Shown: positions 10,045 through 32,921, counted from the first letter of the stretch. The stretch is 64,000 bases of DNA from Nitrosopumilus sp. (GCA_965218695.1 OZ244651.1:1408001-1472000); one strand, 5' to 3'. Numbers and translations are program-made. The notes: generated by a model not told the origin, from the sequence alone.

Positions 10045-10155
10045 GGCTGTTCTCTTTTTGTTGCGCCATAAGTAGATTTTCCGGCATGGGATTACATGCA
10101 GAGCCCAGTGGGGGCAATGCAAACCTCAAATACGCACGCTCCATGTGTAATCATA

Positions 10156-11076
10156 TTGGATTTTGAAGAGCTGCAGCACTTTATCGGGCACAAGATGAGG
10201 ATGACCCACGTCTACCAGCCGCTGCTGATCAAGACCCTGCTGCTCTCCGGAGGCAGCGCGGCCGCCGAGAATGTTGCCAGGGGTTTTTTGAACGAGGACA
10301 AGGCGCAGCTGGAATACTATGTCCAGATAGCAAAGCGCTGGCCCCTGCAGACCCTGAGAAAACACAAGGTGGTAGACTATGACCGCGGCGTCTTTACGCT
10401 GCTGCTGGATGACATCACAAAGGAACAGGGGGAGAGGCTCGTGGAGCTCTGCGATCTGAGATACCAAGAGTACGTTGACAAGACGCTCAGGCTGCCGTGG
10501 TTTGACAGGCGCGGCTCCAGGGAGCACATCCCGGGCCAGATCAGGTTTGCCGTGCTAGCCAAGTCAAAGGGCGTCTGCGTGGCGTGCGGCGTCTCTTCCC
10601 TGGATAGGGCCCTTGAGATCGACCACATAGTGCCCGTGAGCATGGGAGGCGCAAACGAGCTTTCAAACCTCCAGGCGCTCTGCTACAAGTGCAACGCGCA
10701 AAAAAAGAACAGGGACGACACGGACTTTGTCATGGTCTTGAACCGGCTCAAGTACAGGAATCCCAAATGCCCGTTCTGCACGTCAAAGGATCCCGTGTTT
10801 GACAACCGCATGGCCTTTGCCCTGCGGGATGCAAAACCTGCCACCCACCTGCACTCGCTGGTCCTGCCGAGGCGACACACGGGCAACTTTTTTGATCTCA
10901 TACCTGCAGAAAAGTCGCTCTGCCTCGCCCTGATAGATTCGGTCAAGTCAGACATACAGGAGAAGGACGGTACCGTGACAGGGTTCACGGTGAGGTTCGA
11001 GACGGGCCAGATGGCAGGCAGCATGGCAGAGCACTGCCAGATTCACGTGATTCCAAACCGGCACGAGAAGGCGTGA
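10156..11076 (+). CDS. HNH endonuclease-HIT domain fusion protein
   Basis: CVACG, LEIDHIVP-GG-NELSNLQALCYKCN (HNH); CPFC, HSLVLPRRH, HCQIHVIP (HIT); TTG 10156 chosen. Confidence 0.88.
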   Translation: MDFEELQHFIGHKMRMTHVYQPLLIKTLLLSGGSAAAENVARGFLNEDKAQLEYYVQIAKRWPLQTLRKHKVVDYDRGVFTLLLDDITKEQGERLVELCDLRYQEYVDKTLRLPWFDRRGSREHIPGQIRFAVLAKSKGVCVACGVSSLDRALEIDHIVPVSMGGANELSNLQALCYKCNAQKKNRDDTDFVMVLNRLKYRNPKCPFCTSKDPVFDNRMAFALRDAKPATHLHSLVLPRRHTGNFFDLIPAEKSLCLALIDSVKSDIQEKDGTVTGFTVRFETGQMAGSMAEHCQIHVIPNRHEKA

Positions 11077-16790: not shown

Positions 16791-17549
16791 TCATGGAAAC
16801 GCATCAAGTACGGCAGCATAGCTTACAAACCTGTGATTCTCCGGCCGGACACGTATCTGCCGGTACTTGGAGGAGACCGGCCTGCCTGCAACCCCGCAAA
16901 GACCAAGCGAGCCGTGTATGTATCCTGTGTCATTGGCATAATTGAGCACCTCATCTGTAGGCGCGTAATGGTTGACTATCTCTTCAGACACGGCGTCATC
17001 AAGAATCCTGCCGTACTTTTCAGACGACGGGACCCGGTCGGAGATCGAGGCGCCAAACAGGTGGACGCTGCGGACCGCAGGTCCTCCCATCCGGCCTGCA
17101 AGGTACTCTAGCGTGCTGAGGATCACCTGGGAGCCCAGCGAGTGGCCCATTAGCCGTATCGCAGTGTCTGGGCTTGCACACCTGAAATCCTCGATGAACC
17201 GGCCCAGGTGGCACCCGTTCATCACGGCGATCCTCTGGCCGACTTCCAGTGCGGACTTTTCATGCTTTGCCAGGTGGGCGCCGGTGGTGTTAGAATCGTA
17301 GCTGAACCCCACCACCGGAAAGTCATACCCGAGGTGGCGCAGGCGCTCCCGGGCAATGGCCGTCTTTTGGATAGCGCCGCGGCTGTCGTTTCTCAGCCCG
17401 TGAATCATTATAGTGACCTCTGCAGAGACTCCTCTCCTGAGATCCTCAAAGTACCGCCTGGGGTACAGGTAGTATGCATCGTCTTTGAGCCTTTGGCCCG
17501 TGGAAAGATCATAGTATCCCCGAGTGGAGATGCGCGGAATCCTCCTCAT
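16791..17549 (-). CDS. alpha/beta hydrolase (DUF726/DUF900-like)
   Basis: IHG oxyanion motif, GHSLG nucleophile elbow, C-terminal His. Confidence 0.78.
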   Translation of the reverse strand: MRRIPRISTRGYYDLSTGQRLKDDAYYLYPRRYFEDLRRGVSAEVTIMIHGLRNDSRGAIQKTAIARERLRHLGYDFPVVGFSYDSNTTGAHLAKHEKSALEVGQRIAVMNGCHLGRFIEDFRCASPDTAIRLMGHSLGSQVILSTLEYLAGRMGGPAVRSVHLFGASISDRVPSSEKYGRILDDAVSEEIVNHYAPTDEVLNYANDTGYIHGSLGLCGVAGRPVSSKYRQIRVRPENHRFVSYAAVLDAFP

Positions 17550-19201
17550 TGGTGTGAACCCAGATTCTTCTTGTACGCTGCAACCTCAGACTTCTCGACT
17601 TTTGTAAAGAGTGGCGAGATGGTGCCCAGCGCGTGTCCGGGCTTGACTCCCAGGGAGGACATGCCGTCCCACGCAGAATCTGCGACATTCCCGTCCATGC
17701 CAAGCTGGTCCCATATCCTCTGGGCACTCTCGGGAATAAACGGCATGACGGCAATTGCCAGGCTCCGCACCGCATTGACTGAGAGAAACACGCAGTTGTT
17801 GGCGCCGCTGCCCCTTTTCCAGGGCTCCTTGTGTTGGAAGTACTGGTTGAAGAACGAGGAGAACTCCATTATCCTCTTCAGGGCCCTGTCAAGATGGTTC
17901 TGTCTCATGAGTGTGCCCGCGTCGGCTGCAAGGGAGAGGATCTGCTCTTCTGCCTTGGCGTCCATCTCGTCAAAGGGCGTGGCCTCTGGAACCACTCCCT
18001 CAAAGGCCTTTTTGGTGAATCCAAGCGCCCGGTTGACAAGGTTTCCCAGGTTCCCGATAAGCTCCGAGTTGATTCGGACGGTAAAGTCGTCCCAGTCAAA
18101 GTTCAAGTCGTCCTGGGAGTACGGGTTGATGGAGACCAGGTAGAACCGCAGGTAGTCGGCAGGATAATACTTGAGGAATTCCCTCAGCCCGATGTACCAG
18201 TTTCTGCTCTTGGAGATCTTTCTCCCCTGAAGGGTCAGGTGGCCCCGGGTGGGTATGTAGTCGGGCAGCTTGTACTCGCTGTCAATCCCCAGCCTCATCG
18301 CGGGCAGGAACAGGTAGTGGTGGTATGCTATGTCCTTGCCGATAAAGTGGTAGATGTCTGCAGAGTTCCAGAACTCTTTTCCGTCAATCCCCCGGTCATT
18401 GAGAAACTTTACCGCAGTGGAGATGTACGCCAGGTGGTTGTCAAACCACCCGTAGAACACCTTGCCCTTTGCAGAATCAAGGGGGACCGGAACGCCCCAC
18501 GGGATGTCCCGAGTGATGTCCCAGTCGATGAGTCCGGACTTTATCCAGTTCTGGACGTACTTTTTGACGTCCTTTTGGAGGTGTTTATTGCCCTCGAGCC
18601 ACTCGGACAGCGAGTCTCCAAAGTTCCGGAGCCGGAAGAAGTAATGGGCGGTCTTTCTCTTTGTGGGGGGCTGGCTGCATATGGAGCACCTGGGATCGGC
18701 TATCTCGTCGGGCACGCGCCCGCAGCTCTCGCAGAGATCAGAGTACTGGTCACGTGCGCCACAGTACGGGCACGTTCCCTGGACGTACCTGTCAGGCAGG
18801 AACTTTTTGTCATGTTCGCAGTAGAACTGTATTATCTCCTGCTCGTAGATGTGTCCTGCATCGTTGAGCTTTTGAAACACGCCCTGGACGAACTCGATGT
18901 TCTCAGGCGAGCTGGTCCTGTAAAAGTAGTCAAAGTTTATGTTGAATGCGGCAAAGTCATCATAGTCGCGCCTGTTCCAGTGGGCCACATACTCTGCGGG
19001 GGTCTTTCCCTCCTTTTCTGACTGGATCAGTATAGGGGTTCCAAAGTCGTCAGAGGCGCAGATATAGTATGCGTCGACCCCGTTGAGCTTGAGAAACCGC
19101 GTCGTGACGTCTGCAGGAAGGTACGTGGATGCGACATGCCCCAGGTGTATCTCCCCGTTGGAGTAGGGCAGGGCGCTTGTGATGATTGCCTTTTCTGTCA
19201 A
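17546..19201 (-). CDS. metG: methionine--tRNA ligase
   Basis: ALPYSNGEIHLGH, Zn knuckle, WDITRD, FIGKDI, KISKS. Confidence 0.96.
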   Translation of the reverse strand: MTEKAIITSALPYSNGEIHLGHVASTYLPADVTTRFLKLNGVDAYYICASDDFGTPILIQSEKEGKTPAEYVAHWNRRDYDDFAAFNINFDYFYRTSSPENIEFVQGVFQKLNDAGHIYEQEIIQFYCEHDKKFLPDRYVQGTCPYCGARDQYSDLCESCGRVPDEIADPRCSICSQPPTKRKTAHYFFRLRNFGDSLSEWLEGNKHLQKDVKKYVQNWIKSGLIDWDITRDIPWGVPVPLDSAKGKVFYGWFDNHLAYISTAVKFLNDRGIDGKEFWNSADIYHFIGKDIAYHHYLFLPAMRLGIDSEYKLPDYIPTRGHLTLQGRKISKSRNWYIGLREFLKYYPADYLRFYLVSINPYSQDDLNFDWDDFTVRINSELIGNLGNLVNRALGFTKKAFEGVVPEATPFDEMDAKAEEQILSLAADAGTLMRQNHLDRALKRIMEFSSFFNQYFQHKEPWKRGSGANNCVFLSVNAVRSLAIAVMPFIPESAQRIWDQLGMDGNVADSAWDGMSSLGVKPGHALGTISPLFTKVEKSEVAAYKKNLGSHQ

Positions 19202-19247: not shown

Positions 19248-20460
19248 GGGTGTGTCCTAGTAATAAAAAATGCCATCCCATGTACCAGAATGCCAAAGAC
19301 ATGATTGGTGCCAGAACCCGTCGACGCCAACAGTGCCGCACCATCGATCCTCCACAACCCATAAAATCCCCCAAATCCAAGACACTGTGCGGAGGCTCCG
19401 CTAGGAGGCGCGTGTCAAGACGCGCCGGTTACGCTGCAAGTGTCGCGATTTGATCCTGTGTGAGCCTGCCGTCTTTTGCCTGCAATCTGGCCACGAGCTC
19501 GATGTTGTAGCACATGACACGGATCGCAGTCTCCCTTGTCCGGTTCTCGTGTTTTCGGCACCTGGTGCTGTCCCCGTACATCTTCTTGAGGGCGGCAAAG
19601 ACTGCCTCGATGATGCTGCGCTGGTGGTATTCCGAGTCAAACCTGTCCCGTTCATCCATGTACAGGCTTACCATCTCGCGCCACGACTGGCTTCCCCTGG
19701 CGTTGCGTATGGTGTTGGATTTTGGCTTGATGCGGGGCACCATTCCCATCGCAGATATCATGTTGCACATTAGCCTTGCCAGGTATGCAGAATCCAGGCA
19801 AAAGTCGCCGGTGCCCCGGCCTAACCTGCCGAGCATCGCGTACAGCCCGTTTATGTCTGCCACTGCGCTGTCAGTCACCATGCAGTCGATTATCACCCTG
19901 GTGCGGATATCCACGATTGCGTGCAGTTTGACCCATCCCTTTCTGGTACGAAAACTGTCGGTCCTGACGTCAAACCACCTGACAAACCGCAGGTACGAGT
20001 ATCCGGTACCGTCTGCTGCCAGGGAGCCTGCCTCCACCTCCCTGATGGCAATCCGGTGTGCCTCTGCCAGGTACCATTCCGGGATCAGGCCGTAGGCGCG
20101 TGCTATCGTGCTCTTGGAGGGAATTTTCTCTAGGCCCATCTTGGCTGCCATGGCGCTATTGTTTCGGAGGATGCCGACCATCTTACGGTAGGTCGTGCGC
20201 TGTGCCTCAAGCATGATGCAGACAGCTGCCATGGCGCCAGGCGGGTATGCCGTCATGCCGCCCAGGCCGGGCCTGACGGCGTACGGATCCCCAAGATTCT
20301 TGATTATTCCCAGCACGGTATTCAGCATGAGGCCCGACAGGTACTGCTGAACCAAATCGTACTGTCGTTGGTCGCGTTTCTTTGTAGTCATTAGGCGATG
20401 CCGTGATCCGCCGATCCATATCTTTTGTCATCCGGGGGTATATGCCTCTAGGACACACCC
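19248..20460 (-). mobile_element. IS5-like insertion sequence type A, copy 1 (1213 bp)
   Basis: 13-bp TIR GGGTGTGTCCTAG; 9-bp TSD GTTATCGGT. Confidence 0.95.
19429..20391 (-). CDS. IS5-like DDE transposase
   Basis: AADGTGY, WVKLHAIVD, LDSAY, YHQRSIIEAVF; protein identical to copies at 26033 and 53242. Confidence 0.92.
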   Translation of the reverse strand: MTTKKRDQRQYDLVQQYLSGLMLNTVLGIIKNLGDPYAVRPGLGGMTAYPPGAMAAVCIMLEAQRTTYRKMVGILRNNSAMAAKMGLEKIPSKSTIARAYGLIPEWYLAEAHRIAIREVEAGSLAADGTGYSYLRFVRWFDVRTDSFRTRKGWVKLHAIVDIRTRVIIDCMVTDSAVADINGLYAMLGRLGRGTGDFCLDSAYLARLMCNMISAMGMVPRIKPKSNTIRNARGSQSWREMVSLYMDERDRFDSEYHQRSIIEAVFAALKKMYGDSTRCRKHENRTRETAIRVMCYNIELVARLQAKDGRLTQDQIATLAA

Positions 20461-20545
20461 GTTATCGGTTGTGTGTTGCATAATTACGCCTACTTCATTA
20501 GAAAATATGCGTAATCCAGAATTTTTTCAAACTCCGCGTTGACAT

Positions 20546-21898
20546 GTTAGCCCTGCTGTCAAAAATTTATGATCCATCCAATTAAAACCAAAATATGCCG
20601 GTTCATACTGTTGTCGAATCAGAAAACAAGCGACCTGCAAAAAGAGAATAAGGCTCTCAGAGACATAATCAAGCGCCAGGACGCAGCTGCCAGGCACGAG
20701 CAAAGCCTGTGGCGCACACGGGACGGTTCCGAATCCGGAGCCGCAGGAGAGCCCGCCCTGTTGCACCGCGTGGAGGTGCTTGACGACATCATCAGAGTCG
20801 GGAAAAATCTTCATGACGCGACGCTGAAGTGCAGGGAACAGTTCCAATACATACTTGACAGGGCCGAGGCGTGGATAAGGCAAAGCGGCAAATCCCCACT
20901 CTTCAGGAATGACGAGACGAGGGCATCGGATCCCGGGAACCGCTGCAAGCTGTACCCAAGGCACGCGCTGCTCATGTCACTGATGTACAAAAAGGGCAAC
21001 CCCACGCAGGGCGTGCTTGCGGCATTCTTTGGAATAGACCAGGCAACCGTGTCCCGGTATATCGATGTACTAGACGAGGTGCTTGACGTGGCGCTGCCCA
21101 CTGCTGCCAACATCTCAAAGGAGATGGCAGACACGGAGACAAAAGAGGATCTCAAAAAAATAATTTCCGGACCTGACGGGGGCATCATGATGATCGACGG
21201 CACGCACTGCCCCATACAGAGGCCGGACGAAAAACAGATGAGAAGCATGATGTATTCTGGCAAGAAGAAAAAGTTCACCCTCAATACCACCGTGTGCATA
21301 AACGAAAACGGGGTGATAGTCGCCATATCCGACAGCACCGTGGGATCCGTCCACGACATCACGCTTCTCAGGGAGAGCCCGCTGCCATTTGGAAAGTGGT
21401 GGGACCGCATGTGCGACGAGAACACCCCCGAAGAGGACAGGGTCCACACCCTTACTGACCGCGGTTACAAGGGAATCGCAAAGGATATGCCCGGTACAAA
21501 CACCCTGCAGCCGCACAAGAAGACCAAGAACCACAAGCGCTTTACAAAGGAGGAAAAAGAACACAACCACAAAATCAATTCCGCCCGGGTAAAGGTAGAG
21601 CACTCCATTGGCAGGCTGAAGCGGTACGGCCGGCTTACCGCGCCATACAAGGGAAAGATTGGCGACTTTAACAGGGAATTTAACATAATAACCGGGCTTG
21701 TAAACCTGGACCTCGTGTGGAACTACCTGGAGAAGGGACCCCCTTCAGGCGGCAATCTGGGGCCGGTAATAAACTGGGAACAGGCAAACGTCCCCGGCAG
21801 CGCCGTTTCAAACAATTAATTCCGTGCACATCGCGGTGCTGCAAGGCTGCGCACGTTATTTCGCATTTCGGGCAGGACAGGATCCCCACATGGCTAAC
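20546..21898 (+). mobile_element. IS5-family ISL2-group-like element
   Basis: Ends GTTAGCCCTG / CATGGCTAAC flanked by AT. Confidence 0.7.
20569..21819 (+). CDS. transposase (HTH plus DDE_Tnp_4-like)
   Basis: LAAFFGIDQATVSR, IDGTHCPIQRP, YSGKKK, GSVHD, DRGY, RVKVEHSIGRLK. Confidence 0.9.
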   Translation: MIHPIKTKICRFILLSNQKTSDLQKENKALRDIIKRQDAAARHEQSLWRTRDGSESGAAGEPALLHRVEVLDDIIRVGKNLHDATLKCREQFQYILDRAEAWIRQSGKSPLFRNDETRASDPGNRCKLYPRHALLMSLMYKKGNPTQGVLAAFFGIDQATVSRYIDVLDEVLDVALPTAANISKEMADTETKEDLKKIISGPDGGIMMIDGTHCPIQRPDEKQMRSMMYSGKKKKFTLNTTVCINENGVIVAISDSTVGSVHDITLLRESPLPFGKWWDRMCDENTPEEDRVHTLTDRGYKGIAKDMPGTNTLQPHKKTKNHKRFTKEEKEHNHKINSARVKVEHSIGRLKRYGRLTAPYKGKIGDFNREFNIITGLVNLDLVWNYLEKGPPSGGNLGPVINWEQANVPGSAVSNN

Positions 21899-22047
21899 AT
21901 GGCGATAATTAAATTAGAATTTTTAATATTTTCTGGTTTTTCTGGTTTAACCCAACGAAATGGAGGGATTACGCATGGCTTCTATAGTACAATTCAGTTT
22001 CTCTGTCTTGATATGCCGGCGTTGGGAGTTCAATTATTGAAAATCTG

Positions 22048-23791
22048 GTAAGTGATTCGCTTTTTGAAGTGCCCTGATTCCCCTGCCGGTAGTCACCGTG
22101 CCGGGACGGAACCCAAGGATTTTTTCACGCTTTGTCAAAATTAATTGTCTGTAGAGATCCAAGTACTAGCGGGTGCCAGTCCCTTCAGCTAACCACAAAT
22201 GAAGGAACCGACACGCCAAACATGCTTGGAAGAGGAGGGATTTAAGGCAATCCTTGAACGTTCCGCGCAGGACTGCGGTGCCTGCATGAAATCCGAATGT
22301 AGATGCTGCCAGTACTGGTCAGGCGTGGTGCGTGATGCCGTGGATGCTGCCGTCAAGACCCTGAAAATGGCGCGCGAGGTTGCAGGTGCGTCAGACGGCA
22401 ATGAGGCGGAGAGTCTTCAGGCCCAGGTAAAGTCCCTGAAAGAAGACAACAAGAAGCACGCCGAGGCAAACCGCAAACTCAGCGCCCGGGCAAACGGGAT
22501 AAGCATGCCTTCCTCCAAAAAGAAGACCAATCCCGGTAAGGCAGGCAGGCCCAAGGGGCAAAAGGCCACGATCAACAAGAGGCCCGATAAGGTAGACTGC
22601 ACGGAGATCGTAGACTTTGACAGGTGCCCCGGGTGCGGCGGGAAGAACGTCTCGGAGAACCCCACGGGCGAATACGACCGGATCGTCAAGACGCTGACCC
22701 TGCTTGTAAAGACCATAAAGTACGTGACAGTCAGGCGCTGGTGCAGGGACTGCAAGAAACAGGTCTCTGCCAAGCCTCCCGGAACCGCGCCGCACGCGCG
22801 CTACGGGGCCAACGTCGGCGCCGTGCTCAACTTTTTGAATATGTCGGGTCTGTCCCACGCAAGATCCGCCGAATTCGCAGGCGACGCGCTTGGCACGCCC
22901 GTGTCCTGCTCGTCTGCATACAGGAACAAGATAAGCAGGGCCCTGCAGATGGCCCCGGAACGCGACGCCGTGAGGAAAAAGATCCTCAAAGAGCCGCACC
23001 TGGGGGCCGACGAGTTCCACTGGCCACTCAAGGGCAGGCGCGGCTACGGCGTGGTCGCACTCGGCAAGGAGTCGTGCCTGGTGGAAATAGTAGACTCCCG
23101 CAAGACAAAGACCATCAAGGGAGTACTGCCAGGCTACGAGGGGATCATCACGCAGGACTCGTACCCGGCGTGGCTCCATGTCGGGTCGGCCCGCCAGATG
23201 TGCGTGGTCCACCAGGAGCGCCTGGTGCAGAAGGATCTGGAGTGGAATCCAGGCGGGGACGTGACCGAATTCCTGGCCGGGCTGTCTGCCGTGCACAAAA
23301 AGATCTACCGCGCCTGGCGCGTCAAGGACCCGTATTCCAGGGCCGTGGCGGCTGACTGCATAGACTCGGAACCGGCGGGGCTGTTTGCCGCCCCGTACCA
23401 AGACGACAAGCACGGCACCATCGCCAAATACCGCAAGCGGCGCTACCGCGAGGGGTACTACATGACAACATGCCTGCGGACCCCGGGCATCAGTCCGGAC
23501 AACAACGCGGTGGAGAGAGCCAACCGAAGGTTCGTCTCAGTGAGGAACGACGGCGGGGGCAACCGGTCCCGGAAGGGCATGGACGCAAATTCCGTGCTGT
23601 TTACCATGCTGGCCACTGACCGCGTCCGTAGAGAAAGCTTCTTCGACCACTTGGTGCGTTCTGCGTCCGGCGACGGCTGACAACGGAGCCTGCGTCACCA
23701 TTTATTCGGCACGATCCGCGCTCTCGGATGGGGAGGCTGCGCGAGTATAGGCGCGCAAAGCCAGCGGAACTTCAAAAAGCGAATCACTTAC
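22048..23791 (+). mobile_element. IS66-family single-ORF element
   Basis: Perfect 23-bp TIR GTAAGTGATTCGCTTTTTGAAGT; 8-bp TSD AAAATCTG. Confidence 0.95.
22199..23680 (+). CDS. IS66 transposase
   Basis: Coiled coil, GRPKG, CPGC/CRDC zinc finger, ADE, QDSY, PDNNAVERANR. Confidence 0.92.
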   Translation: MKEPTRQTCLEEEGFKAILERSAQDCGACMKSECRCCQYWSGVVRDAVDAAVKTLKMAREVAGASDGNEAESLQAQVKSLKEDNKKHAEANRKLSARANGISMPSSKKKTNPGKAGRPKGQKATINKRPDKVDCTEIVDFDRCPGCGGKNVSENPTGEYDRIVKTLTLLVKTIKYVTVRRWCRDCKKQVSAKPPGTAPHARYGANVGAVLNFLNMSGLSHARSAEFAGDALGTPVSCSSAYRNKISRALQMAPERDAVRKKILKEPHLGADEFHWPLKGRRGYGVVALGKESCLVEIVDSRKTKTIKGVLPGYEGIITQDSYPAWLHVGSARQMCVVHQERLVQKDLEWNPGGDVTEFLAGLSAVHKKIYRAWRVKDPYSRAVAADCIDSEPAGLFAAPYQDDKHGTIAKYRKRRYREGYYMTTCLRTPGISPDNNAVERANRRFVSVRNDGGGNRSRKGMDANSVLFTMLATDRVRRESFFDHLVRSASGDG

Positions 23792-24478
23792 AAAATCTGC
23801 GTTTTAGTGCGTCTGATAGTGTATGTAAAAAATGCTTGTCTGCAGTGTTTTGGGTACCAATGATCCGGTAATCACGTGGAATCAACAAGTCCTCAAATGG
23901 TTTTTCAGGATCTGTAGTTGGGATTTGCAAATTGTTGTATTCCAAGGCGGTAAATAACTGGCCAAAGGCCCTGTCAATATTTGCACGGTTAAATTCATCA
24001 ATTACAAGCCAGATTCCCCTATATTTTGAATTTTTTCCATTAATTTTTTTTCCAGCAAAAATTCTTTTCTTGGAATTGCTAGTTCCATCGACCCAATTTT
24101 GTGCCACGGTGTCAGTCACACACCCTTTCTGAATTGAATATATTATTTGGCCATCTTGATCAAGTTTTGGGTAGATTCCCCCAATCACATCTTGAGTTGT
24201 CCAGTCAGCAGTTGCAGTATGAACTTGAGCAAAATATCCTTTAAATTCCCTCCAGCCTAGGCGGGGCAAGATGGTAGCAAGATGAGTTTTTCCAGAACCT
24301 ACTGGCCCAACAAGAAGAATATTTTTTCCAGCAATCAAGGTACTAAAAATTTGATTTAGGGTATCATCATCTATCAAAATTTCTTCCTTGATAGATTTTC
24401 TTGCTTCTTCAAGAGATTTAGTGGATGGGAAGGGCAGTGCCACATCTTCAAAAACATCATTGGGTTTTTCCATTTCTA

Positions 24479-25573
24479 TAGTGGCGATCAAAAGTTCCTG
24501 CAAAATAATTCGGCTTTTCTGTTAAGGAATTTGAACAAATCCAGATTGAATCTTGCAGTTCGATAATACTGGGAGACGGCACTGTGCATGTCCAAGAAGG
24601 TTTTGTAGTATTCTGAGACAAGCAGGTTCCGTTTTCCTTGGTGCCAGCATTCTTCCACGGCGTTGAGATACGGCGAGCCTTTTGGCAGGTATATGATCTT
24701 GATGTTCTTGTTCTCGCGCAGCAGCGTCCGGACGGCTTTTGCGCGGTGCGGGGACGCCCTGTCCACCATGACGGCCACCTTCCCAAAATGCCTCTGCAGG
24801 GCCTTGAGGTACGCAACAAATGTGGGCGCGTTAAACCCGCTGGCAGTCCTGAAGAACTGCCTGCCATCGGTCGTGACTGAACCGTACACGGCGATTCTTT
24901 TGTGGCTTCCCGTATATGGCACGGTTATTGGCACCCCCACAGGCGACCAATACTTGCGACCCGATTTTACGTCGTGTATGAAGAACGCCTCGTCTTCCAC
25001 GACTGGGACAAAATCGTCCTTTTCTAGGCGTGAAATTCTCTTTTTGAGGCGATATTGCCAGCTTTTTACGGCCGTTTTGGTGGCCCTGTTGATGTGGATC
25101 CTTTGCGACCCCTTGGGAGACAGGCCGTATTTTTGCATGATTTTCCTGATATTCGTTCTGTGCATCTTTGTTCCCGTTTCCCTGTGTATGACCTGCTGCA
25201 GTTCGGCAGGAGTGGTCTTGAACCGGTCCACTACCTTGTCCAGTATGCCGTCCATCGCTTCCGGCGAAATCTTGGGCGGCCTGCCGGATCTGGGAAGATC
25301 CCGGAGGCCTTCGAGGCCTCCTTCCTCGTATCTGCGCATCCAGCGGTATACCCACCGGTCAGCCTGCAAGAGAATGTCTGCGGCATCGCTTATGCTCATC
25401 TTGCGCACGTGTACCATGTGCACTGCAAGCATTCTGACACGCACCCTGCCGTCTTTTTCCTTTTTGTACGCCTTTTCGAGTTCTTCCTGTTTTGTTTCGT
25501 CCATGCTGCGTTCAAGGACCACGGATCTACATAGTTTTCGGGCAGAATTTGTCAAAACTTTTGCGCGTCACTA
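24479..25573 (-). mobile_element. IS630-family element
   Basis: TAGTG...CACTA ends, TA duplication at a CTAG target. Confidence 0.92.
24488..25504 (-). CDS. IS630 transposase
   Basis: PRSGRPPK, EDEAFF, DRASPH, LPKGSPYLNAVE. Confidence 0.92.
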   Translation of the reverse strand: MDETKQEELEKAYKKEKDGRVRVRMLAVHMVHVRKMSISDAADILLQADRWVYRWMRRYEEGGLEGLRDLPRSGRPPKISPEAMDGILDKVVDRFKTTPAELQQVIHRETGTKMHRTNIRKIMQKYGLSPKGSQRIHINRATKTAVKSWQYRLKKRISRLEKDDFVPVVEDEAFFIHDVKSGRKYWSPVGVPITVPYTGSHKRIAVYGSVTTDGRQFFRTASGFNAPTFVAYLKALQRHFGKVAVMVDRASPHRAKAVRTLLRENKNIKIIYLPKGSPYLNAVEECWHQGKRNLLVSEYYKTFLDMHSAVSQYYRTARFNLDLFKFLNRKAELFCRNF

Positions 25574-26032
25574 TAGAATTTGATTATAGACACTTTCATT
25601 GATTTTAATGATAGAATTATACGGATTCCATTCTGGCAGTTTCTTGATTTTTTGCTGTAGCATAGGAGAGGCCTTGATTGCATTAGGTACTTGGTCAGAC
25701 GATGGTTCATGCTGTTCATCAAAATAATGAAAATCTTTCATCTTTGCCACATGTTTGTTATCTTCGGTCGTTGTAATATTTTCTACAGTCCCAAATCCCC
25801 AAAAATGCAAGTCTTCGTTATCTGTATAAAACCAGACTGTTGTGGTGTTTTGATTTATTGTAGCATAATTTGACACGTTTGGGCCATATTGGTATTTCTT
25901 ACCTAACATGTCATTCCAATACATTCTGTCTTTTTTCTTTCTTTTAAAGCTTGGAGTGTGACGGGGTGTGTCCTAGAGGCATATACCCCCGGATGACAAA
26001 AGATATGGATCGGCGGATCACGGCATCGCCTA

Positions 26033-26995
26033 ATGACTACAAAGAAACGCGACCAACGACAGTACGATTTGGTTCAGCAGTACCTGTCGGGCCTCATGCT
26101 GAATACCGTGCTGGGAATAATCAAGAATCTTGGGGATCCGTACGCCGTCAGGCCCGGCCTGGGCGGCATGACGGCATACCCGCCTGGCGCCATGGCAGCT
26201 GTCTGCATCATGCTTGAGGCACAGCGCACGACCTACCGTAAGATGGTCGGCATCCTCCGAAACAATAGCGCCATGGCAGCCAAGATGGGCCTAGAGAAAA
26301 TTCCCTCCAAGAGCACGATAGCACGCGCCTACGGCCTGATCCCGGAATGGTACCTGGCAGAGGCACACCGGATTGCCATCAGGGAGGTGGAGGCAGGCTC
26401 CCTGGCAGCAGACGGTACCGGATACTCGTACCTGCGGTTTGTCAGGTGGTTTGACGTCAGGACCGACAGTTTTCGTACCAGAAAGGGATGGGTCAAACTG
26501 CACGCAATCGTGGATATCCGCACCAGGGTGATAATCGACTGCATGGTGACTGACAGCGCAGTGGCAGACATAAACGGGCTGTACGCGATGCTCGGCAGGT
26601 TAGGCCGGGGCACCGGCGACTTTTGCCTGGATTCTGCATACCTGGCAAGGCTCATGTGCAACATGATATCTGCGATGGGAATGGTGCCCCGCATCAAGCC
26701 AAAATCTAACACCATACGCAACGCCAGGGGAAGCCAGTCGTGGCGCGAGATGGTAAGCCTGTACATGGATGAACGGGACAGGTTTGACTCGGAATACCAC
26801 CAGCGCAGCATCATCGAGGCAGTCTTTGCCGCCCTCAAGAAGATGTACGGGGACAGCACCAGGTGCCGAAAACACGAGAACCGGACAAGGGAGACTGCGA
26901 TCCGTGTCATGTGCTACAACATCGAGCTCGTGGCCAGATTGCAGGCAAAAGACGGCAGGCTCACACAGGATCAAATCGCGACACTTGCAGCATAG
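26033..26995 (+). CDS. IS5-like DDE transposase
   Basis: Identical protein to 19429-20391. Confidence 0.92.
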   Translation: MTTKKRDQRQYDLVQQYLSGLMLNTVLGIIKNLGDPYAVRPGLGGMTAYPPGAMAAVCIMLEAQRTTYRKMVGILRNNSAMAAKMGLEKIPSKSTIARAYGLIPEWYLAEAHRIAIREVEAGSLAADGTGYSYLRFVRWFDVRTDSFRTRKGWVKLHAIVDIRTRVIIDCMVTDSAVADINGLYAMLGRLGRGTGDFCLDSAYLARLMCNMISAMGMVPRIKPKSNTIRNARGSQSWREMVSLYMDERDRFDSEYHQRSIIEAVFAALKKMYGDSTRCRKHENRTRETAIRVMCYNIELVARLQAKDGRLTQDQIATLAA

Positions 26996-27166
26996 CTGGC
27001 GCGTTTCACCACGCGCCTCCTAGCGGAGCCTCCGCACCGTGTCTTGGATTTGGGGGATTTTATGGGTTGTGGAGGATCGATGGTGCGGCACTGTTGGCGT
27101 CGACGGGTTCTGGCACCAATCGTGTCTTTGGCATCTTGGCACATGAAATGGCATTTTTTATTACTA

Positions 27167-28268
27167 TAGTGAAAAGCAAAAATTCGTTCCAAGTTCAGCA
27201 CCTCAGACCGAAAACTATGTAGATCATCTGGTCGCCTAACGCGGCATGAGCAAAGTAACACGGGAAGAACTCGAAGCAGCATACAAAAAAGAAAAAGACC
27301 TCAGGGTGGGAGTCAGAATGCTTGCAGTGCACATGGTATATTTTCGCAAAGTGAGCATAGAGGATGCAGCCGTCAATCTTTTGCGATGCCCTCGATGGGT
27401 GCGCAACTGGCTGGAACGCTTCGAGAAGGGAGGCCTTGAAGGCCTCCTGGATCTTCCCAGATCCGGCAGGCCGCCCAAGATTTCGCCGGAAACAATGGAC
27501 GGCATACTGGACAAGGTAGACAGGTTCAAGACCACTCCTGCCGAACTGCAACAGGTCATACACAAGGAAACGGGAACAAGGATGCACAGGACGAATGTCA
27601 GGAAAATCATGCAAAAATACGGCCTGTCTCCCAAGGGGTCGCAAAGGATCCACATTAACAGGGCCACCAAAACGGCCGTAAAAAGTTGGCAATATCGCCT
27701 CAAAAAGAGAATTTCACGCCTAGAAAAGGACGGTTTTGTCCTGGCCGTGCAAGACGAGGCGTTCTTCATACACGACGTAAAATCGGGTCGCAAGTATTGG
27801 TCGCCTGTGGGGGTGCCAATAACCGTACCATATACTGGAAGCCACAAAAGAATTGCCGTGTACGGTTCAATCACGACGGACGGCAGGCAGTTCTTCAGGA
27901 CTGCCAGCGGGTTTAATGCGCCCACATTTGTTGCCTATCTCAAGGCCATGCAGAGGCATTTTGGGAAGGTGGCCGTCATGGTGGACAGGGCGTCCCCGCA
28001 CCGCGCAAAAGCCGTCCGGACGCTGCTGCGCAAGAACAAGAACATCAGGATCATATACCTGCCAAAAGGCTCACCGCATCTCAACGCCGTGGAAGAATGC
28101 TGGCACCAGGGAAAACGGAACCTGCTTGTCTCAGAATACTACAAAACCTTCTTGGACATGCACAGGGCCATCTCCCAGTATTATCGAACTGCGAGATTCA
28201 ATCTGGATTTGATCAAATTCTTTAACAGAAAAGCCGAATTATTTTGCAAGAACTTTTGATCGCCACTA
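27167..28268 (+). mobile_element. IS630-family element (nested)
   Basis: TAGTG...CACTA ends, TA TSD within CTAG of the host TIR. Confidence 0.93.
27246..28259 (+). CDS. IS630 transposase
   Basis: QDEAFF, DRASPH, SPHLNAVE. Confidence 0.92.
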   Translation: MSKVTREELEAAYKKEKDLRVGVRMLAVHMVYFRKVSIEDAAVNLLRCPRWVRNWLERFEKGGLEGLLDLPRSGRPPKISPETMDGILDKVDRFKTTPAELQQVIHKETGTRMHRTNVRKIMQKYGLSPKGSQRIHINRATKTAVKSWQYRLKKRISRLEKDGFVLAVQDEAFFIHDVKSGRKYWSPVGVPITVPYTGSHKRIAVYGSITTDGRQFFRTASGFNAPTFVAYLKAMQRHFGKVAVMVDRASPHRAKAVRTLLRKNKNIRIIYLPKGSPHLNAVEECWHQGKRNLLVSEYYKTFLDMHRAISQYYRTARFNLDLIKFFNRKAELFCKNF

Positions 28269-28333
28269 TAGGACACACCCAGTGTGACGTAATAGTACAT
28301 AAGTTTGTTTTTTAGAACTTACTGGCGTACCTA

Positions 28334-29435
28334 TAGTGAAAAGTGAAAGTTCGTTCCAAGTTCAGCACCTCAGACCGAAAACTATGTAGATCAGCCGGTC
28401 GCCTAACGCGGCATGATCAAAGTAACACGGGAAGAACTCGAAGTAGCATACAAAAAAGAAAAGGACCTCAGGGTGGGAGCCAGAATGCTTGCAGTACACA
28501 TGGTACATTTTCGTAAAATGAGCATAGATGATGCGGCCGTCAATCTTCTGCGATGTCCCAGGTGGGTACGCAACTGGCTGGAACGCTTCGAGAATGGAGG
28601 TCTACAAGGCCTCCGGGATCTTCCCAGATCCGGCAGGCCGCCCAAGATTTCACCTGAAGCAATGGACGGCATACTGGACAAGGTAGACCGGTTCAAGACC
28701 ACTCCTGCCGAACTGCAACAGGTCATACACAGGGAGACGGGAACAAAGATGCACAGGACGAACATCAGGAAAATCATGCAAAAATACGGTCTGTCCCCCA
28801 AGGGGTCGCAAAGGATCCACATCAACAGGGCCACCAAGGCAGCCGTAAAAAGCTGGCAATATCGCCTCAAAAAGAGAATTTCACGCCTAGAAAAAGACGG
28901 TTTTGTCCTGGCCGTGCAAGACGAGGCGTTCTTCATACACGACGTAAAATCTGGCCGCAAGTATTGGTCCCCCGTGGGGGTGCCAATAACCGTGCCATAC
29001 ACTGGAAGCCACAAAAGAATTACCGCGTACGGTTCAATTACAATGGATGGCAGGCAGTTCTTCAGGACTGCCAGCGGGTTTAACGCGCCCACTTTTGTTG
29101 CTTATCTCAAGGCCATGCAGAGGCATTTTGGGAAGGTTGCCGTCCTGGTGGACAGGGCGTCCCCGCACCGCGCAAAAGCCGTCCGGACGCTGCTGCGCGA
29201 GAACAAGAACATCAGGATCATATACCTGCCAAAAGGCTCACCGTATCTCAACGCCGTGGAAGAATGCTGGCACCAGGGAAAACGGAACCTGCTTGTTTCA
29301 GAATACTACAAAACCTTCTTGGACATGCACAGTGCCGTCTCCCAGTACTATCGAACTGCGAGATTCAATCTGGATTTGATCAAATTCTTTAACAGAAAAG
29401 CCGAATTATTTTGCAAGAACTTTTGATCGCCACTA
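28334..29435 (+). mobile_element. IS630-family element
   Basis: TAGTG...CACTA ends, TA TSD in CCTAGG. Confidence 0.93.
28413..29426 (+). CDS. IS630 transposase
   Basis: Close paralogue of 27246-28259. Confidence 0.92.
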   Translation: MIKVTREELEVAYKKEKDLRVGARMLAVHMVHFRKMSIDDAAVNLLRCPRWVRNWLERFENGGLQGLRDLPRSGRPPKISPEAMDGILDKVDRFKTTPAELQQVIHRETGTKMHRTNIRKIMQKYGLSPKGSQRIHINRATKAAVKSWQYRLKKRISRLEKDGFVLAVQDEAFFIHDVKSGRKYWSPVGVPITVPYTGSHKRITAYGSITMDGRQFFRTASGFNAPTFVAYLKAMQRHFGKVAVLVDRASPHRAKAVRTLLRENKNIRIIYLPKGSPYLNAVEECWHQGKRNLLVSEYYKTFLDMHSAVSQYYRTARFNLDLIKFFNRKAELFCKNF

Positions 29436-29960
29436 TAGGATATGATCATACCAATAACAAAATACATCAAACACACCCAGATCTTTGAGCTCATCAATTT
29501 CAAGAAAATCAATCAATTTTTGGCATTTTTTAATGCCGTCTAGGTAACTCTCGATTTTCGGATCAATCTCATCTTTCCAATTATTAATAGATGCAAAATC
29601 TTTGTATGTACGTTTGATTCTATTATTTATCACAGGATATTTGTCATTAACACAAAAGAAAATCGGAGTAATCGAGCCAACTTGTAGCCTTCTCTGTAAT
29701 TTTTTATTTGCGGTAAATTTCTTAATGTGCTCTTCAAGTTTTTTTGGTTCTTTTTGAAAATTATATCCAAGATCATAGACCATGTTTGCTATCGTGTTCC
29801 AGTCTTCATCGGTGTAGTTGTAACTTTTGAAGTATTGCCTAATATTGCGAAAAGCTGGGAATGTACTAATTCGTTTTGCATACTCCCATTTGAATTGTGG
29901 TAATAATCCATTAAGAATCCATTCTGTAAATTCACTGCTTGATTTATCCATAGATTTAAG

Positions 29961-31486
29961 GTAAGTGTTCACGTGGTTTAACTCATTTTTAGGCGTATTT
30001 TGCAATCTCCGCCAAGTAATCCAATTTCTTGTTTTTCCATGTCATTACACATGAAAAGAAATTCGCCATCCACGTCATCGTCTCCTCTGCCCTTATGCTG
30101 CCCCGTATTTTTCTGTGCACGACTATCTCGCGCAACCCGCGTTCTGCAGCATTGTTTGTAGGCGGGATCTTTGGGTTCAGCACGAACCGGAACAGGTCGC
30201 TGCCAGCATTGCTGATCTTGACCATGAATTTTTCCAATATTGGATCGTCGGCGTACCTTGCAACGATCTTTTCGATGCATGACGTCAGCATGGCAGACGC
30301 GTTGTCCCGGAGAGAGCGCGAGCGTTTCCTGCTTGCCCTTCTGGCATAATCATAGATTATGCGCAGGTGCTTCAGGACGTTGCGCGCGCCTAGGCAGTCC
30401 GGATTGCGGTTGCAGATGTCCCTGGCCTCGCGTATTATGTGCGACCAGCAGCGCTGGACGCGGTATTTTCCGTACGCCGTCCAGCCGTCGCACACTAACG
30501 TGCCGTCCCAACCCCCAAGCGCTTCTTTCAGAACCTTTGCCCCCCGGCTGTCCCGTATCACGTACAGCGCGTGCCCGGTCAGCGGATCGTGCAGTATCCA
30601 CACCCAGACGTTGCGGCCGTTTAGGTGAATCGATGTCTCGTCGGCGTGCAGTATCTTGGCCTTGCGTATCATGGCGGCAATGGCTGCCGCAGGGGCGCCC
30701 AGCGACGTTCCCAGCCTGCGCATTATGTTGTGCGCCGTGCCCGAGGAGAGTGTAATTCCGTACCGCGACATGCGGTCTGCGATCATCCTAAACGGCATGC
30801 GACACACGTAATCGTCTGCAACATCAGTCGTTATGCTCGGATCGTAGCTGCCCTTGTCTGGAAGGCCGGTCTCGGGCTTGATGTCCACCAGACCGCAGGA
30901 GCAGCGACACGTGTTTATGGTGTGGCGCGTGGTGATGACCTTTATCGTGCGCTCCACCCTGGTAATGTCGCGTTTTTCTGACTGCACTATGGAAAGGCTA
31001 CCCGAGCCGCATTCGGGGCAGGCCTCCGGGGTGTGTTCCTCAAACTCGGTGGGTTTTGGCTTGCGGGTGCGGCCCATGTGGCCTTTTTGCCCCCCGCGCG
31101 ACTTCCCGCTGCCGGCCGCATCCACGCGGTCCTTTTGATCCCGGGAGGCTTTTGTGGATTTATTGTAGGCATTCTTTTCGTCGCCTTTTCCCTTTGTGTC
31201 AGGCCATCCGGGCCCCCTTTTTTGTGATGACGGGGTGTTGTAATTGTCATGCCGCACCAGCCTGCGCTTAAGATCAGCAACTGCCAGATTCAATTCCTCA
31301 ATTATCTGCCCTTGCATCTCAATCGTCTGCTTGAGCTTGATGTTCTCAGTCTTGAGATCCGTGTACATCTTTTTGAGTTCAGCCTGGCTTTTCACATCGG
31401 GTTTGGATTACCATCTTATTTGGATCTGTGGTTTGCACAAAATTTACCCAAGAGTGAACTGAATTAGGCACGACGTGAACACTTAC
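29961..31486 (-). mobile_element. IS66-family single-ORF element type 2, copy 1
   Basis: TIR GTAAGTGTTCACGT; 8-bp TSD GATTTAAG. Confidence 0.95.
29989..31395 (-). CDS. IS66 transposase
   Basis: GGQKGH, CPEC, HADET, VCDGW, QRCWSH, PTNNAAERGLR. Confidence 0.93.
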   Translation of the reverse strand: MKSQAELKKMYTDLKTENIKLKQTIEMQGQIIEELNLAVADLKRRLVRHDNYNTPSSQKRGPGWPDTKGKGDEKNAYNKSTKASRDQKDRVDAAGSGKSRGGQKGHMGRTRKPKPTEFEEHTPEACPECGSGSLSIVQSEKRDITRVERTIKVITTRHTINTCRCSCGLVDIKPETGLPDKGSYDPSITTDVADDYVCRMPFRMIADRMSRYGITLSSGTAHNIMRRLGTSLGAPAAAIAAMIRKAKILHADETSIHLNGRNVWVWILHDPLTGHALYVIRDSRGAKVLKEALGGWDGTLVCDGWTAYGKYRVQRCWSHIIREARDICNRNPDCLGARNVLKHLRIIYDYARRASRKRSRSLRDNASAMLTSCIEKIVARYADDPILEKFMVKISNAGSDLFRFVLNPKIPPTNNAAERGLREIVVHRKIRGSIRAEETMTWMANFFSCVMTWKNKKLDYLAEIAKYA

Positions 31487-31786
31487 GATTTAAGTTTGCC
31501 CATTAAACTTTTGACTTCATGTTTTTCCTTTTCTATATTTTTTAGATGATTTTTTGCCTCATCTGTTTGCAACCATTCTCTAAACTTTAAAATTAATTCT
31601 TTTGTCATCAAATCAGTTGCTTTCAAACTCAATGCTTTGATTAAAATGTGTTTGCTCGGCTCAAAATGAGAAACAATTCACAGTTAATCCTGAGACTTGG
31701 ACATATGTTACCACGATCCACCGGCCGCAAATGCTGGTGGACACTCCGGACTCCAAAAAATTGTACGCGTCACGCCGCGGGACTAA

Positions 31787-32910
31787 CGTGTTGCATAATC
31801 ACGTCCATCATGTTGCAGTAAGCGACAATCATCAGCACCCGTGCAGACCGAAAAAGCTAAAGATCATTAGAACCAGGGCATCCGGTTGAAGACGAACAAC
31901 AAAAAATACATCCGGCGTGGTCATACGTTAATCATCCACGATGACCCGGAGAGTCATGTCGAGATCAAAAGGGCCAACCGCCGCAAGGTCGGAGCTCCGT
32001 TCCAACACGCAAACTCATTTTTCGCTTCCCTGGCGGAGTCAAATCGATGATCCACATCACTTGCTGGAACCTGATGGGCATGGTGCTGGAAGTGTGCAAG
32101 GGTATGAAAGCGCCCTACTACGCCACCATCTTCAGAAGGATCCAGTCACTAGACATATAGACAAACGGCGGCACCGTCACTGTCATCGACAGCAGGGACA
32201 CGATCCGGTTTTCAGTCGACTCTATGGGCCTTAAGCAGCACAGCGGAGAGGGAAGTAGATACGGCAAAAGCGGATGGTAAGGCGCAGGTCTGTAAAGAGG
32301 CATGTCCTGGCGGATGTGGACACGAAAGAGATACTGCAGTCAGGGCCACTGATGATCGGATCGGGGATTCTCCCATGTTTGTTCCGCTGCTTGACGGTGC
32401 ATTGGAGAATTGCGTACGGGTAGATCCGGCATCAGAGTCCGGCCACAAAGACAGTTCCACAAAACGTTCTGCGTATGGCGATGGTGCTTACGCCTCCAGG
32501 GACAACCTAATGGCATGTGGGAAACGCGATATGGTTCCGTTTATCAAGCTCAAGGCAAGCTCCGTTCCAAAAGGAAAGGGCGCAGGCGATGCGCGGGGCA
32601 TGGAAGTCCGGGATCAATTTGGCGGCTCTGATCTCAATTGGGCGAAATGGCTGCCTGACGAGAAGACCAATCAGGAGGAGTGGAAGACTCGAATCAGATA
32701 CGACAAGGGATGGATGGTGGAGATTGTGTTTTCTGCATTCAAGAGGATGTTCGGGGAGCACCTGTACTCATTGAAATGGAAATGATTCAGGAGGTCAATC
32801 TCAAGGTGGCCGCCTACAACAGACTGATAGACATGGGGCTGGAGCGGTGTAGAACCAGATAAACGAATCAGGTACAAGTTGTGGCAGAACAAGTTGAATT
32901 ATGCAACACG
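31787..32910 (+). mobile_element. degenerate IS5-family (IS903-group-like) element, transposase pseudogene
   Basis: 13-bp TIR CGTGTTGCATAAT; frameshifted fragments (VDSMGLKQ, YGDGAY, WMVEIVFSAFKRMFGE). Confidence 0.8.
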
Positions 32911-32921
32911 CTACGCAGTCA

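Follow-up and report, generated by a model that had tools for sequence, protein, structure and literature searches.

The 64,000-nt stretch of the Nitrosopumilus sp. assembly GCA_965218695.1 (OZ244651.1:1408001-1472000), here called the window and used as the reference for all coordinates, carries the remains of a gene encoding an McrB-like GTPase of the type IV restriction systems. The interpretation favoured here, with a probability of roughly 90%, is that this locus preserves what is left of a dead, modification-dependent (type IV) restriction gene of the McrB type, AT-rich and obtained by horizontal transfer, which was broken by recent insertion sequences (ISs) and has lost both its 3' end and the gene of its nuclease partner. 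It is a real but ordinary IS-nested pseudogene, the product of a well-known phenomenon, and the locus itself is of little weight except as a well-preserved record of an IS burst dismantling a foreign defence gene in an archaeon. The host is an ammonia-oxidising archaeon, since the assembly encodes an archaeal AmoA.

The gene lies on the minus strand and survives in six pieces, which are, in the direction of reading:

31487..31608, minus strand: piece 1, beginning with the ATG at 31608; codons 1-40 and a further 2 nt, which encode the first helix of the N-terminal helical domain.
29436..29952, minus strand: piece 2, 172 codons; main body of the N-terminal helical domain.
28281..28331, minus strand: piece 3, 17 codons; linker from the N-terminal domain to the putative PUA-like domain.
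25574..25954, minus strand: piece 4, 127 codons; plausibly a PUA-like (EVE/YTH/ASCH-like) domain, just before the AAA+ domain.
23792..24476, minus strand: piece 5, 228 codons; McrB-type AAA+ GTPase core.
21985..22039, minus strand: piece 6, 18 codons; last surviving part of the gene, reading straight into the element ISE.

As first delimited in a preliminary description, the six segments are each open in the required phase and measure 122, 517, 51, 381, 685, and 57 nt (1813 nt in total), although the end given there for the last one, 21983, runs 1-2 nt too far, as 21983-21984 belong to the end of the truncating element, ISE, and 21985 is the first base outside it. When the segments were joined by a script that removed one element and one copy of the target-site duplication per gap and let the last piece end at 21985, a frame of 1811 nt was obtained, with 603 codons and no stop, which confirms that the six segments can be joined without a stop or frameshift. 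The five junction peptides written out in that description were also reproduced exactly, in the contexts LMGKLK/SMDKSSS, WYDHIL/GTPVSSK, VLLRHT/PSFKRKK, VYNQIL/EMEKPND, and ALKRRF/SIIELPT (the bar marks the junction). The frame has no stop codon at its end because the gene was cut off, and it does not represent a complete gene.

The joined open reading frame (ORF) had been proposed as a test of this reconstruction, and besides being free of stops its fragments align collinearly to the same homologues rather than to unrelated proteins. Residues 220-603 form one ungapped block with residues 763-1146 of the database protein P0001 (286 of 384 identical), residues 210-603 align without gaps to P0003 254-647, a block that includes the short piece 3, and residues 3-210 align, again without gaps, to P0124 2-209 (105/208 identical), while piece 6 aligns to P0001 1127-1147. 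Taken together, the blocks of P0001, P0003, and P0124 span all five junctions, and the combination of exact joins with a collinear alignment to homologues is far beyond chance. The claim of a “perfect reading frame” can therefore be kept for the pieces, in which there is no stop, although the frame is not restorable, since the gene has lost its nuclease partner and about 200 codons at the C-terminal end. Nor was the gene invisible to gene callers, as had been supposed, since the 172-aa fragment is already present as an ORF of its own in the protein collection (P0122).

The kind of protein that was encoded is indicated by piece 5, which matches Pfam AAA_5 (PF07728) at 2.2e-15 over residues 52-228 and contains a Walker A motif (GPVGSGKT), a Walker B motif (DEFNRAN), and the signature NTAD. 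Its best sequence matches in the PDB are the McrB proteins of E. coli and Thermococcus (approximately 3e-12 and 1e-9), the McrB structures 6hz4, 6ut6, and 7vsr being matched at about 3e-12 with the motifs aligned, and a phmmer alignment to E. coli McrB pairs GPVGSGKT with GPPGVGKT, DEFNRAN with DEINRAN, and NTAD with NTAD, as expected for the McrB-type AAA+ domain with NTAD that had been recognised at the outset. As described in PMC11090510, McrB depends on the NxxD signature for hydrolysing GTP.

The closest database proteins, P0001-P0004 (847-1355 aa, from metagenomes and one NCBI genome), are 78-81% identical to piece 5, and its nearest loci in species genomes belong to the Nitrososphaerota. 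When a closer intact orthologue was sought in 151 genomes of the same family, five (including this genome, G000) gave a match at 1e-10, and none outside G000 exceeded 40% identity. The nearest relative in a species genome (L008:8677-10100, in a metagenome-assembled genome (MAG) of the Nitrososphaerota, 74% identical over piece 5) is split into several short ORFs and may be frameshifted or broken too. It was also observed that the closest intact homologues, P0001, P0002, P0004, and P0005 (~1350 aa), have about 500 extra N-terminal residues, which include a Cys-rich stretch that by eye resembles a zinc ribbon, PADLOC PDC-S02 matches, and a PD-T4-1-like domain; the Cys-rich part alone has a 52%-identical match at G000:C1:2184420-2184644.

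Neighbourhoods of the intact homologues, whose inspection had been recommended, revealed a partner gene of ~470-560 aa directly downstream in 41 of 55 related loci. An alignment of 14 of these partners contains invariant E, PD, and D-x-K residues, and given that the partner profile also matches E. coli McrC (E 0.0024) and that 6 of the 14 members match PF04411, the partner is regarded as a divergent McrC-like nuclease. In one Nitrosopumilus MAG, a related McrB-like/McrC-like pair lies between a gene for an MmeI/Eco57I-type methyltransferase-restriction protein and one for a DEAD-box helicase with an MZB (MrfA zinc-binding) domain, in a neighbourhood (L006:13157-16243, plus strand, and L006:5539-8238, minus strand) that looks like a small defence island.

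The gaps between the pieces and the site of truncation hold seven IS copies, i.e., two of the IS66 family, three of the IS630 family (one nested), one IS5-like, and one DDE_Tnp_4 element, with the transposase families assigned by Pfam to the long ORFs found there:

29961..31486, minus strand: ISD, IS66 family, 1526 bp; 468-aa transposase at 29989-31395 (DDE_Tnp_IS66, 1.8e-39).
28334..29435, plus strand: ISB3, IS630 family, 1102 bp; 337-aa transposase at 28413-29426 (DDE_3 and HTH domains).
25964..28280, plus strand: ISA2, IS5-like, 1213 bp of its own sequence; 320-aa transposase at 26033-26995 (DDE_Tnp_1 and DUF772).
27167..28268, plus strand: ISB2, IS630 family, nested in the right end of ISA2; 337-aa transposase at 27246-28259 (DDE_3).
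24479..25573, minus strand: ISB1, IS630 family, 1095 bp; 355-aa ORF at 24488-25555 (DDE_3 and HTH domains).
22048..23791, plus strand: ISC, IS66 family, 1744 bp; 493-aa transposase at 22199-23680 (DDE_Tnp_IS66, 9e-16).
20499..21984, plus strand: ISE, 1486 bp; 416-aa transposase at 20569-21819 (DDE_Tnp_4 and HTH_Tnp_4); truncates the gene.

Elements of the IS66 family carry a DDE_Tnp_IS66 transposase and terminal inverted repeats starting with GTAAG and produce an 8-bp target duplication. ISD and ISC share the transposase family, the inverted ends (17 nt and 31 nt, respectively), and the 8-bp duplication, which is GATTTAAG at 29953-29960 and 31487-31494 for ISD and AAAATCTG at 22040-47 and 23792-99 for ISC, with one long ORF seen in each. 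In the IS630 family, the combination is a DDE_3 transposase with a TA target duplication, and this was found in all three copies, the TA lying at 28332-3 and 29436-7 for ISB3, at 27165-6 and 28269-70 for ISB2, and at 24477-8 and 25574-5 for ISB1. The IS5-like ISA2 is bounded by a 9-bp duplication, AGTGTGACG, at 25955-63 and 28281-89, and when the nested ISB2 and one TA are removed from it, exactly 1213 bp are left, the same length as its relative ISA1 (below). This nesting fixes the order of that one pair of insertions.

For every IS of the locus, a 99.46-100% identical copy exists at another place in the genome, and three of them, ISB1, ISB2, and ISB3, have perfectly identical twins. For the others, the best copy reaches 99.87% in the case of ISD (31 other near-full copies), 99.75% for ISA2 (25 other copies), 99.94% for ISC, and 99.46% for ISE (5 other full copies). 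Given this near-identity, the insertions are considered recent, which in turn accounts for the lack of point decay in the gene pieces; the suggestion that the gene was hit by insertions faster than by point mutations thus agrees with both the near-identical copies and the absence of stops.

The borders of the locus are formed by the following features:

31780..32916, strand not assigned: ISF, 1137 bp with 16-nt inverted ends, directly upstream of the start of the gene.
20470..20498, plus strand: end stub of the ISF family, 29 nt, cut by ISE.
19248..20460, minus strand: ISA1, IS5-like, 1213 bp, between the stub and metG, with the 9-bp duplication GTTATCGGT.
17546..19201, minus strand: metG (methionyl-tRNA synthetase; tRNA-synt_1g, 1.6e-136), the first host gene past the locus.

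ISE, which has 19-nt inverted ends, is flanked by unlike sequences, namely the stub followed by ISA1 and metG on its left side and the gene on its right side. Unlike flanks of a single IS usually point to a deletion mediated by the IS or to recombination between two copies, and metG marks the position that the lost 3' end and the nuclease gene would have occupied. The stub shares 20 identical nt with the ends of two ISF-family copies elsewhere on the same contig and resembles the ISF ends at 31784-31799 and 32898-32913, while ISA1 is complementary to ISA2 over 1203 nt at 99%. No recognisable transposase was detected in ISF, only two short ORFs without a Pfam match. Four more copies exist at 77-80% identity, and the element may be old or non-autonomous.

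The homologues extend for about 200 residues past the last piece (P0001 to 1350 and the 787-aa protein P0142 to 787). A tblastn search of the whole assembly for the missing C-terminus and the partner, using P0001, the C-termini of P0001 and P0003, and two partner proteins, recovered only a 45%-identical paralogue on contig C9. In agreement with the earlier statement that the window holds no mcrC, no mcrC-like gene was found in the window or beside the gene, an McrC partner being one that combines DUF2357 with a PD-(D/E)xK nuclease, and Pfam McrBC (PF10117) has no match in the genome. An AAA+ module complete with its C-terminal helical part is not present, as the frame ends at ISE, and even the excision of all the elements would not bring back a function, because the assembly lacks both the partner gene and some 200 codons of the C-terminus.

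The paralogue on C9 is an intact McrB-like gene (L002:1462-3906, minus strand) of 814 aa with an AAA_5 domain, 45% identical to P0001 over the motor, whose residues 145-363 match PADLOC PD-T4-1. Its 486-aa McrC-like PD-DxK partner (L002:2-1459, minus strand) lies directly downstream, and the pair is found on a 39-kb contig, adjoining an rve/IS240-type transposase.

The window belongs to the 2.46-Mb contig (C1) of a 2.63-Mb assembly in nine contigs with 52.8% GC. On this chromosome contig, near-full copies number 26 for ISA, about 28 for ISB, 32 for ISD, 6 for ISE, and 3 for ISC, and the seven IS queries (including the ISF candidate) define 161 merged intervals covering ~167 kb. The GC content of the gene pieces is 34.8%, whereas the ISs have 50-60% and the chromosome has 52.8%. 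With 161 intervals on 2.46 Mb, about 0.12 would be expected per 1.8 kb, and the Poisson probability of six events in 1.8 kb is approximately 4e-9, or 5e-6 after ~1,360 windows, in a model that ignores the insertion intolerance of a compact genome.

Taken together, these observations suggest the following course of events, the order of which we infer. Judging from its relatives, the intact ancestor would have encoded a protein of ~800 aa, with a helical N-terminal module, a PUA-like reader of modified bases, and an McrB-type AAA+ GTPase, followed immediately downstream by the gene of an McrC-like PD-DxK nuclease; by analogy with McrBC, which cleaves modified DNA in a GTP-dependent manner, the reader would bind modified DNA, the GTPase ring would translocate, and the partner would cut. 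During the IS expansion, the gene received five internal insertions (IS66 twice, IS630 twice, and one IS5-like), a further IS630 copy landed inside one of them, and an event at a sixth element, ISE, removed ~200 codons from the 3' end together with the nuclease gene. The insertions probably piled up because this DNA was already non-functional and AT-rich, which is the preferred setting of ISs in this genome, whether through more frequent insertion or through tolerance. On the simplest interpretation, foreign DNA that was dead and rich in AT acted as a sink during an IS burst.

An AT-rich setting of the ISs is seen genome-wide: the 232 IS flanks outside the locus have a mean GC of 44.7%, versus 52.7% in 5000 random windows (Mann-Whitney p 1.5e-47), and 35% of them are below 42% GC, versus 6% of the random windows. 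A number of points weigh against the interpretation as a whole. The flank bias cannot separate a target preference from neutral survival, because intergenic DNA is also AT-rich. The rank of the locus as the densest 15-kb window on the chromosome for these elements (9) involves some circularity, since the locus itself supplied the IS queries. The length and partner of the ancestor are drawn from relatives, as no close intact orthologue with the same N-terminal domain was found, and the best protein of the same layout, P0142, is only 42% identical overall. As the assembly is in nine contigs, the missing piece could, strictly speaking, lie in unassembled DNA, although the estimated completeness is 99.99%.

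Further support, with reservations, comes from four public runs, belonging to four studies, whose Logan contigs were compared with the locus while ignoring joints with 30 letters or fewer on one side. Contigs of the run X5 cover pieces 5, 4, 2, and 1 with their IS junctions and zero mismatches, but X5 may be the source sample of the assembly. In X9, from another study, a single contig of depth 2, whose shorter side has 63 letters, joins 28331 to 29436 through a single TA, which is a hint from that one contig that the ISB3 site is empty. Alleles with fewer insertions, which it had been proposed to look for in mapped reads, are in this way represented in contigs by one of depth 2, and the empty ISB3 site is a possible polymorphic site in another sample. 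Another X9 contig, also single and of low depth, connects 24461 with an oppositely oriented ISE end, its shorter side having 46 letters, and suggests that piece 5 carries a different insertion in that population. A joint from 29438 to 31847, seen in two runs, was set aside as a repeat artefact (30 letters or fewer on one side).

The genome-wide bias of ISs to AT-rich DNA offers a simple and testable explanation for foreign low-GC genes becoming IS sinks. Among the other explanations of the decay, the one that fares best, although it is unlikely, is that the first insertion or the deletion was selected because the nuclease attacked the modified DNA of the host itself or blocked the uptake of useful DNA, with the later insertions being neutral. 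Type IV systems can turn self-toxic after a change in host methylation, and the gene is foreign, as seen in its 34.8% GC against the 52.8% of the host and in its closest relatives, which are found in low-GC Nitrososphaerota and metagenomes. The survival of the intact paralogous system on C9 indicates that the host tolerates such systems in principle, although not necessarily one of this specificity. For a knock-out under selection, a single insertion would have sufficed, and neutral decay fits the data equally well.

It is very improbable that the assembly misplaced repeated IS copies between the pieces of an intact or less broken gene. The more than 150 IS copies do make the genome hard to assemble, and the public contigs at the locus break at IS ends, but each internal insertion has a perfect target-site duplication whose length fits its family, the unique junctions of pieces 5, 4, 2, and 1 recur in the X5 contigs with no mismatch, ISA regains its exact 1213 bp once ISB2 is removed, and the chromosome contig has 2.46 Mb. 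Least credible of all is a switchable gene, in which IS630-type elements would excise precisely and restore function in a subpopulation as a phase-variable defence: every join does restore the frame and the X9 contig has a precisely empty ISB3 site with a single TA, but that site may equally well be the ancestral allele of another strain, five independent elements of three families would all need to leave, and excision cannot restore the function when the assembly contains neither the nuclease partner nor the 3' third of the AAA+ domain.

Returning to the remnant of an acquired type IV gene, the reader part of its product can be examined domain by domain. Piece 4 shares 65-69% identity with the segment of P0001-P0004 that directly precedes their AAA+ domain (68% with P0001 771-900), and phmmer, of which only the first round was used because a second-round hidden Markov model (HMM) search gave many spurious extra stretches, places it in 49 distinct proteins among the 221 stored, always directly upstream of the motor and including proteins of the type Mrr_N-X-AAA_5. 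Its AlphaFold (AF2) model has a predicted local distance difference test (pLDDT) score of 85, and an exhaustive VIA search with this model returned the EVE protein PH1033 (Z 6.5, 99 residues aligned), the YTH domain of Mmi1 (6.0), an ASCH domain (5.9), Rpa0253 (5.6), the N-terminal domain of the Staphylothermus marinus McrB, 6n0s (5.4, 103 aligned), and VcaM4I (5.3), i.e., middling scores of 5.3-6.5 over 91-103 of the 127 residues. Foldseek gave no significant match (best E 0.12), Pfam EVE did not match, and BLASTP detected no significant match between piece 4 and the EVE domain of P0142, the two being aligned only inside the whole-protein alignment. A PUA-like identity of piece 4 is plausible on the strength of these modelled folds, so that the earlier assignment of a PUA/EVE-like middle domain stands as far as the fold matches go (Z 6.5 at best), without a Pfam EVE match and with middling Z scores.

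Pieces 1 and 2 are considered to form one domain because dozens of proteins match piece 1 directly in front of their piece 2-like region, for example at P0124 2-38 and P0123 111-146. The domain has ~210 aa, and its AF2 model is all-helical, with a pLDDT of 93.7. A HMMER scan of 1.84 billion representatives yielded 100 proteins at E ≤ 0.001, 48 of them at 1e-10 or better, one of the 100 being the fragment itself (P0122). In a Pfam scan of 33 proteins with this domain, GmrSD_N was found in 13, AAA_5 in 15, EVE in 4 (one with Mrr_cat), MrcB_N in 6, and nothing in 2; no Pfam family covered the domain in any of the 33, nor did one match piece 2 itself. Its closest relatives (46-65% identical) are fusions to GmrSD_N in 10 of 11 cases.

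No NCBIfam family matched the domain, and a sequence profile found nothing in the PDB below E 0.19, in keeping with the first impression that these ~210 aa belong to no named family. At the level of the fold, Foldseek had zero matches at E ≤ 0.001 and VIA had none among 48,161 chains at Z ≥ 5, so that the per-domain Foldseek comparison that had been advised ended without a significant match for either this domain or piece 4; in the ESM Atlas, it falls only in unnamed clusters, apart from a lead (0.91) to the candidate DUF8425. An identity with the PD-T4-1-like domain of P0001 or of the C9 paralogue was rejected, as there is no PADLOC match for piece 2, and BLASTP of the domain gave only a 17-residue match at E 0.002 to P0003 and nothing to the C9 protein.

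Among the long, weak structural alignments of this domain, HhH-GPD glycosylases, whose hallmarks are a helix-hairpin-helix, a Gly/Pro-rich loop, and a conserved Asp, recur (3n0u, Z 4.2, 139 aligned; 2jhj, Z 4.1, 127 aligned; 8a5f, Z 3.3, 117 aligned; and, in Foldseek, the AGOG 3knt at E 1.4), while hhalign gave a probability below 1% when a profile of the domain (A2) was compared with two HhH-GPD proteins of this genome. It is a rather doubtful conjecture that the domain is an undescribed sensor module of modification-dependent restriction enzymes, shuffled among GmrSD, McrB, and EVE-Mrr/HNH effectors and perhaps derived from a catalytically dead HhH-GPD-like base-flipping fold, in which a nearly invariant Asn would take the place of the catalytic Asp of the glycosylases; if true, the domain would provide these enzymes with another, independent way of sensing DNA modification. 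The domain is, in any case, a candidate specificity or regulatory module, and the most useful by-product of the analysis, as a domain with a confidently folded model and no counterpart in Pfam, NCBIfam, or the PDB, which stands in front of at least three classes of type IV enzymes.

As for the whole architecture, P0142 has this helical N-terminal domain, Pfam EVE, and AAA_5 in the same order and is collinear with the joined product over residues 3-602 (235/560 identical). The existence of this intact protein means that the three-domain architecture is not new, and what had been presented as a possibly new two-reader architecture is better called uncharacterised. What appears particular here, on the basis of sequence identity, is the combination of an N-terminal domain of the GmrSD type (~64% identity) with a core of the P0001 type (~74% identity).

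Compared with the McrBC systems of E. coli K-12 and T. gammatolerans, the gene is similar in its AAA_5 core with Walker A, Walker B, and NxxD, in the location of the specificity region before the motor, and in the PD-DxK partner that its relatives carry directly downstream. It differs in that the reader is not ADAM/DUF3578 but an unnamed helical module plus a putative PUA-like domain, in that the partner of the relatives is too divergent for Pfam McrBC, and in that this copy is broken in five places, truncated, and without a partner. The core can be assigned by its sequence to the McrB branch of type IV systems, although as a system the locus is neither complete nor accompanied by a partner.

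The EVE/YTH-McrB fusions of archaea and bacteria, on which Bell et al. reportedly worked in 2020 and 2024, have a PUA-like domain directly before the McrB GTPase, as the gene described here plausibly does. The model of piece 4 resembles those of S. marinus (6n0s, Z 5.4, 103 aligned) and T. gammatolerans (6p0g, Z 4.2), and P0142 has Pfam EVE in the position of piece 4. Unlike these fusions, however, piece 4 falls below Pfam EVE and has middling fold matches, and there is an extra helical domain in front of it. A third comparison is offered by the GmrSD-family type IV enzymes with N-terminal extensions, given that the closest relatives of the N-terminal domain are fused to GmrSD_N, although the effector here is an McrB motor and not DUF262/DUF1524.

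The closest parallel for the decay itself is the “local hopping” mobile DNA of the Azolla cyanobiont, which PMC4369082 reportedly describes and which represents IS-driven pseudogene nests in an IS-expanded genome. The two cases share many near-identical copies, serial and nested insertions in a dead gene, and exact duplications that permit its reconstruction; the present case is set apart by its host, an ammonia-oxidising archaeon, and by its target, a defence gene that is foreign and AT-rich.

Finally, the 64-kb window as a whole contains about 18 IS copies or transposase ORFs among housekeeping archaeal genes, such as those for methylmalonyl-CoA mutase, MeaB, TFIIB, Nre, SAH hydrolase, NAD synthase, and PHA synthase. 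Further IS ORFs are IS630-like at 40111, 41460, and 44977, IS66-like at 43111 and 51033, and DDE_Tnp_1 at 14641, 33115, and 62934. A 326-aa ORF at 10096-11076 (plus strand), with HNH endonuclease and HIT domains, lies between an M1 aminopeptidase gene and that of ketol-acid reductoisomerase.

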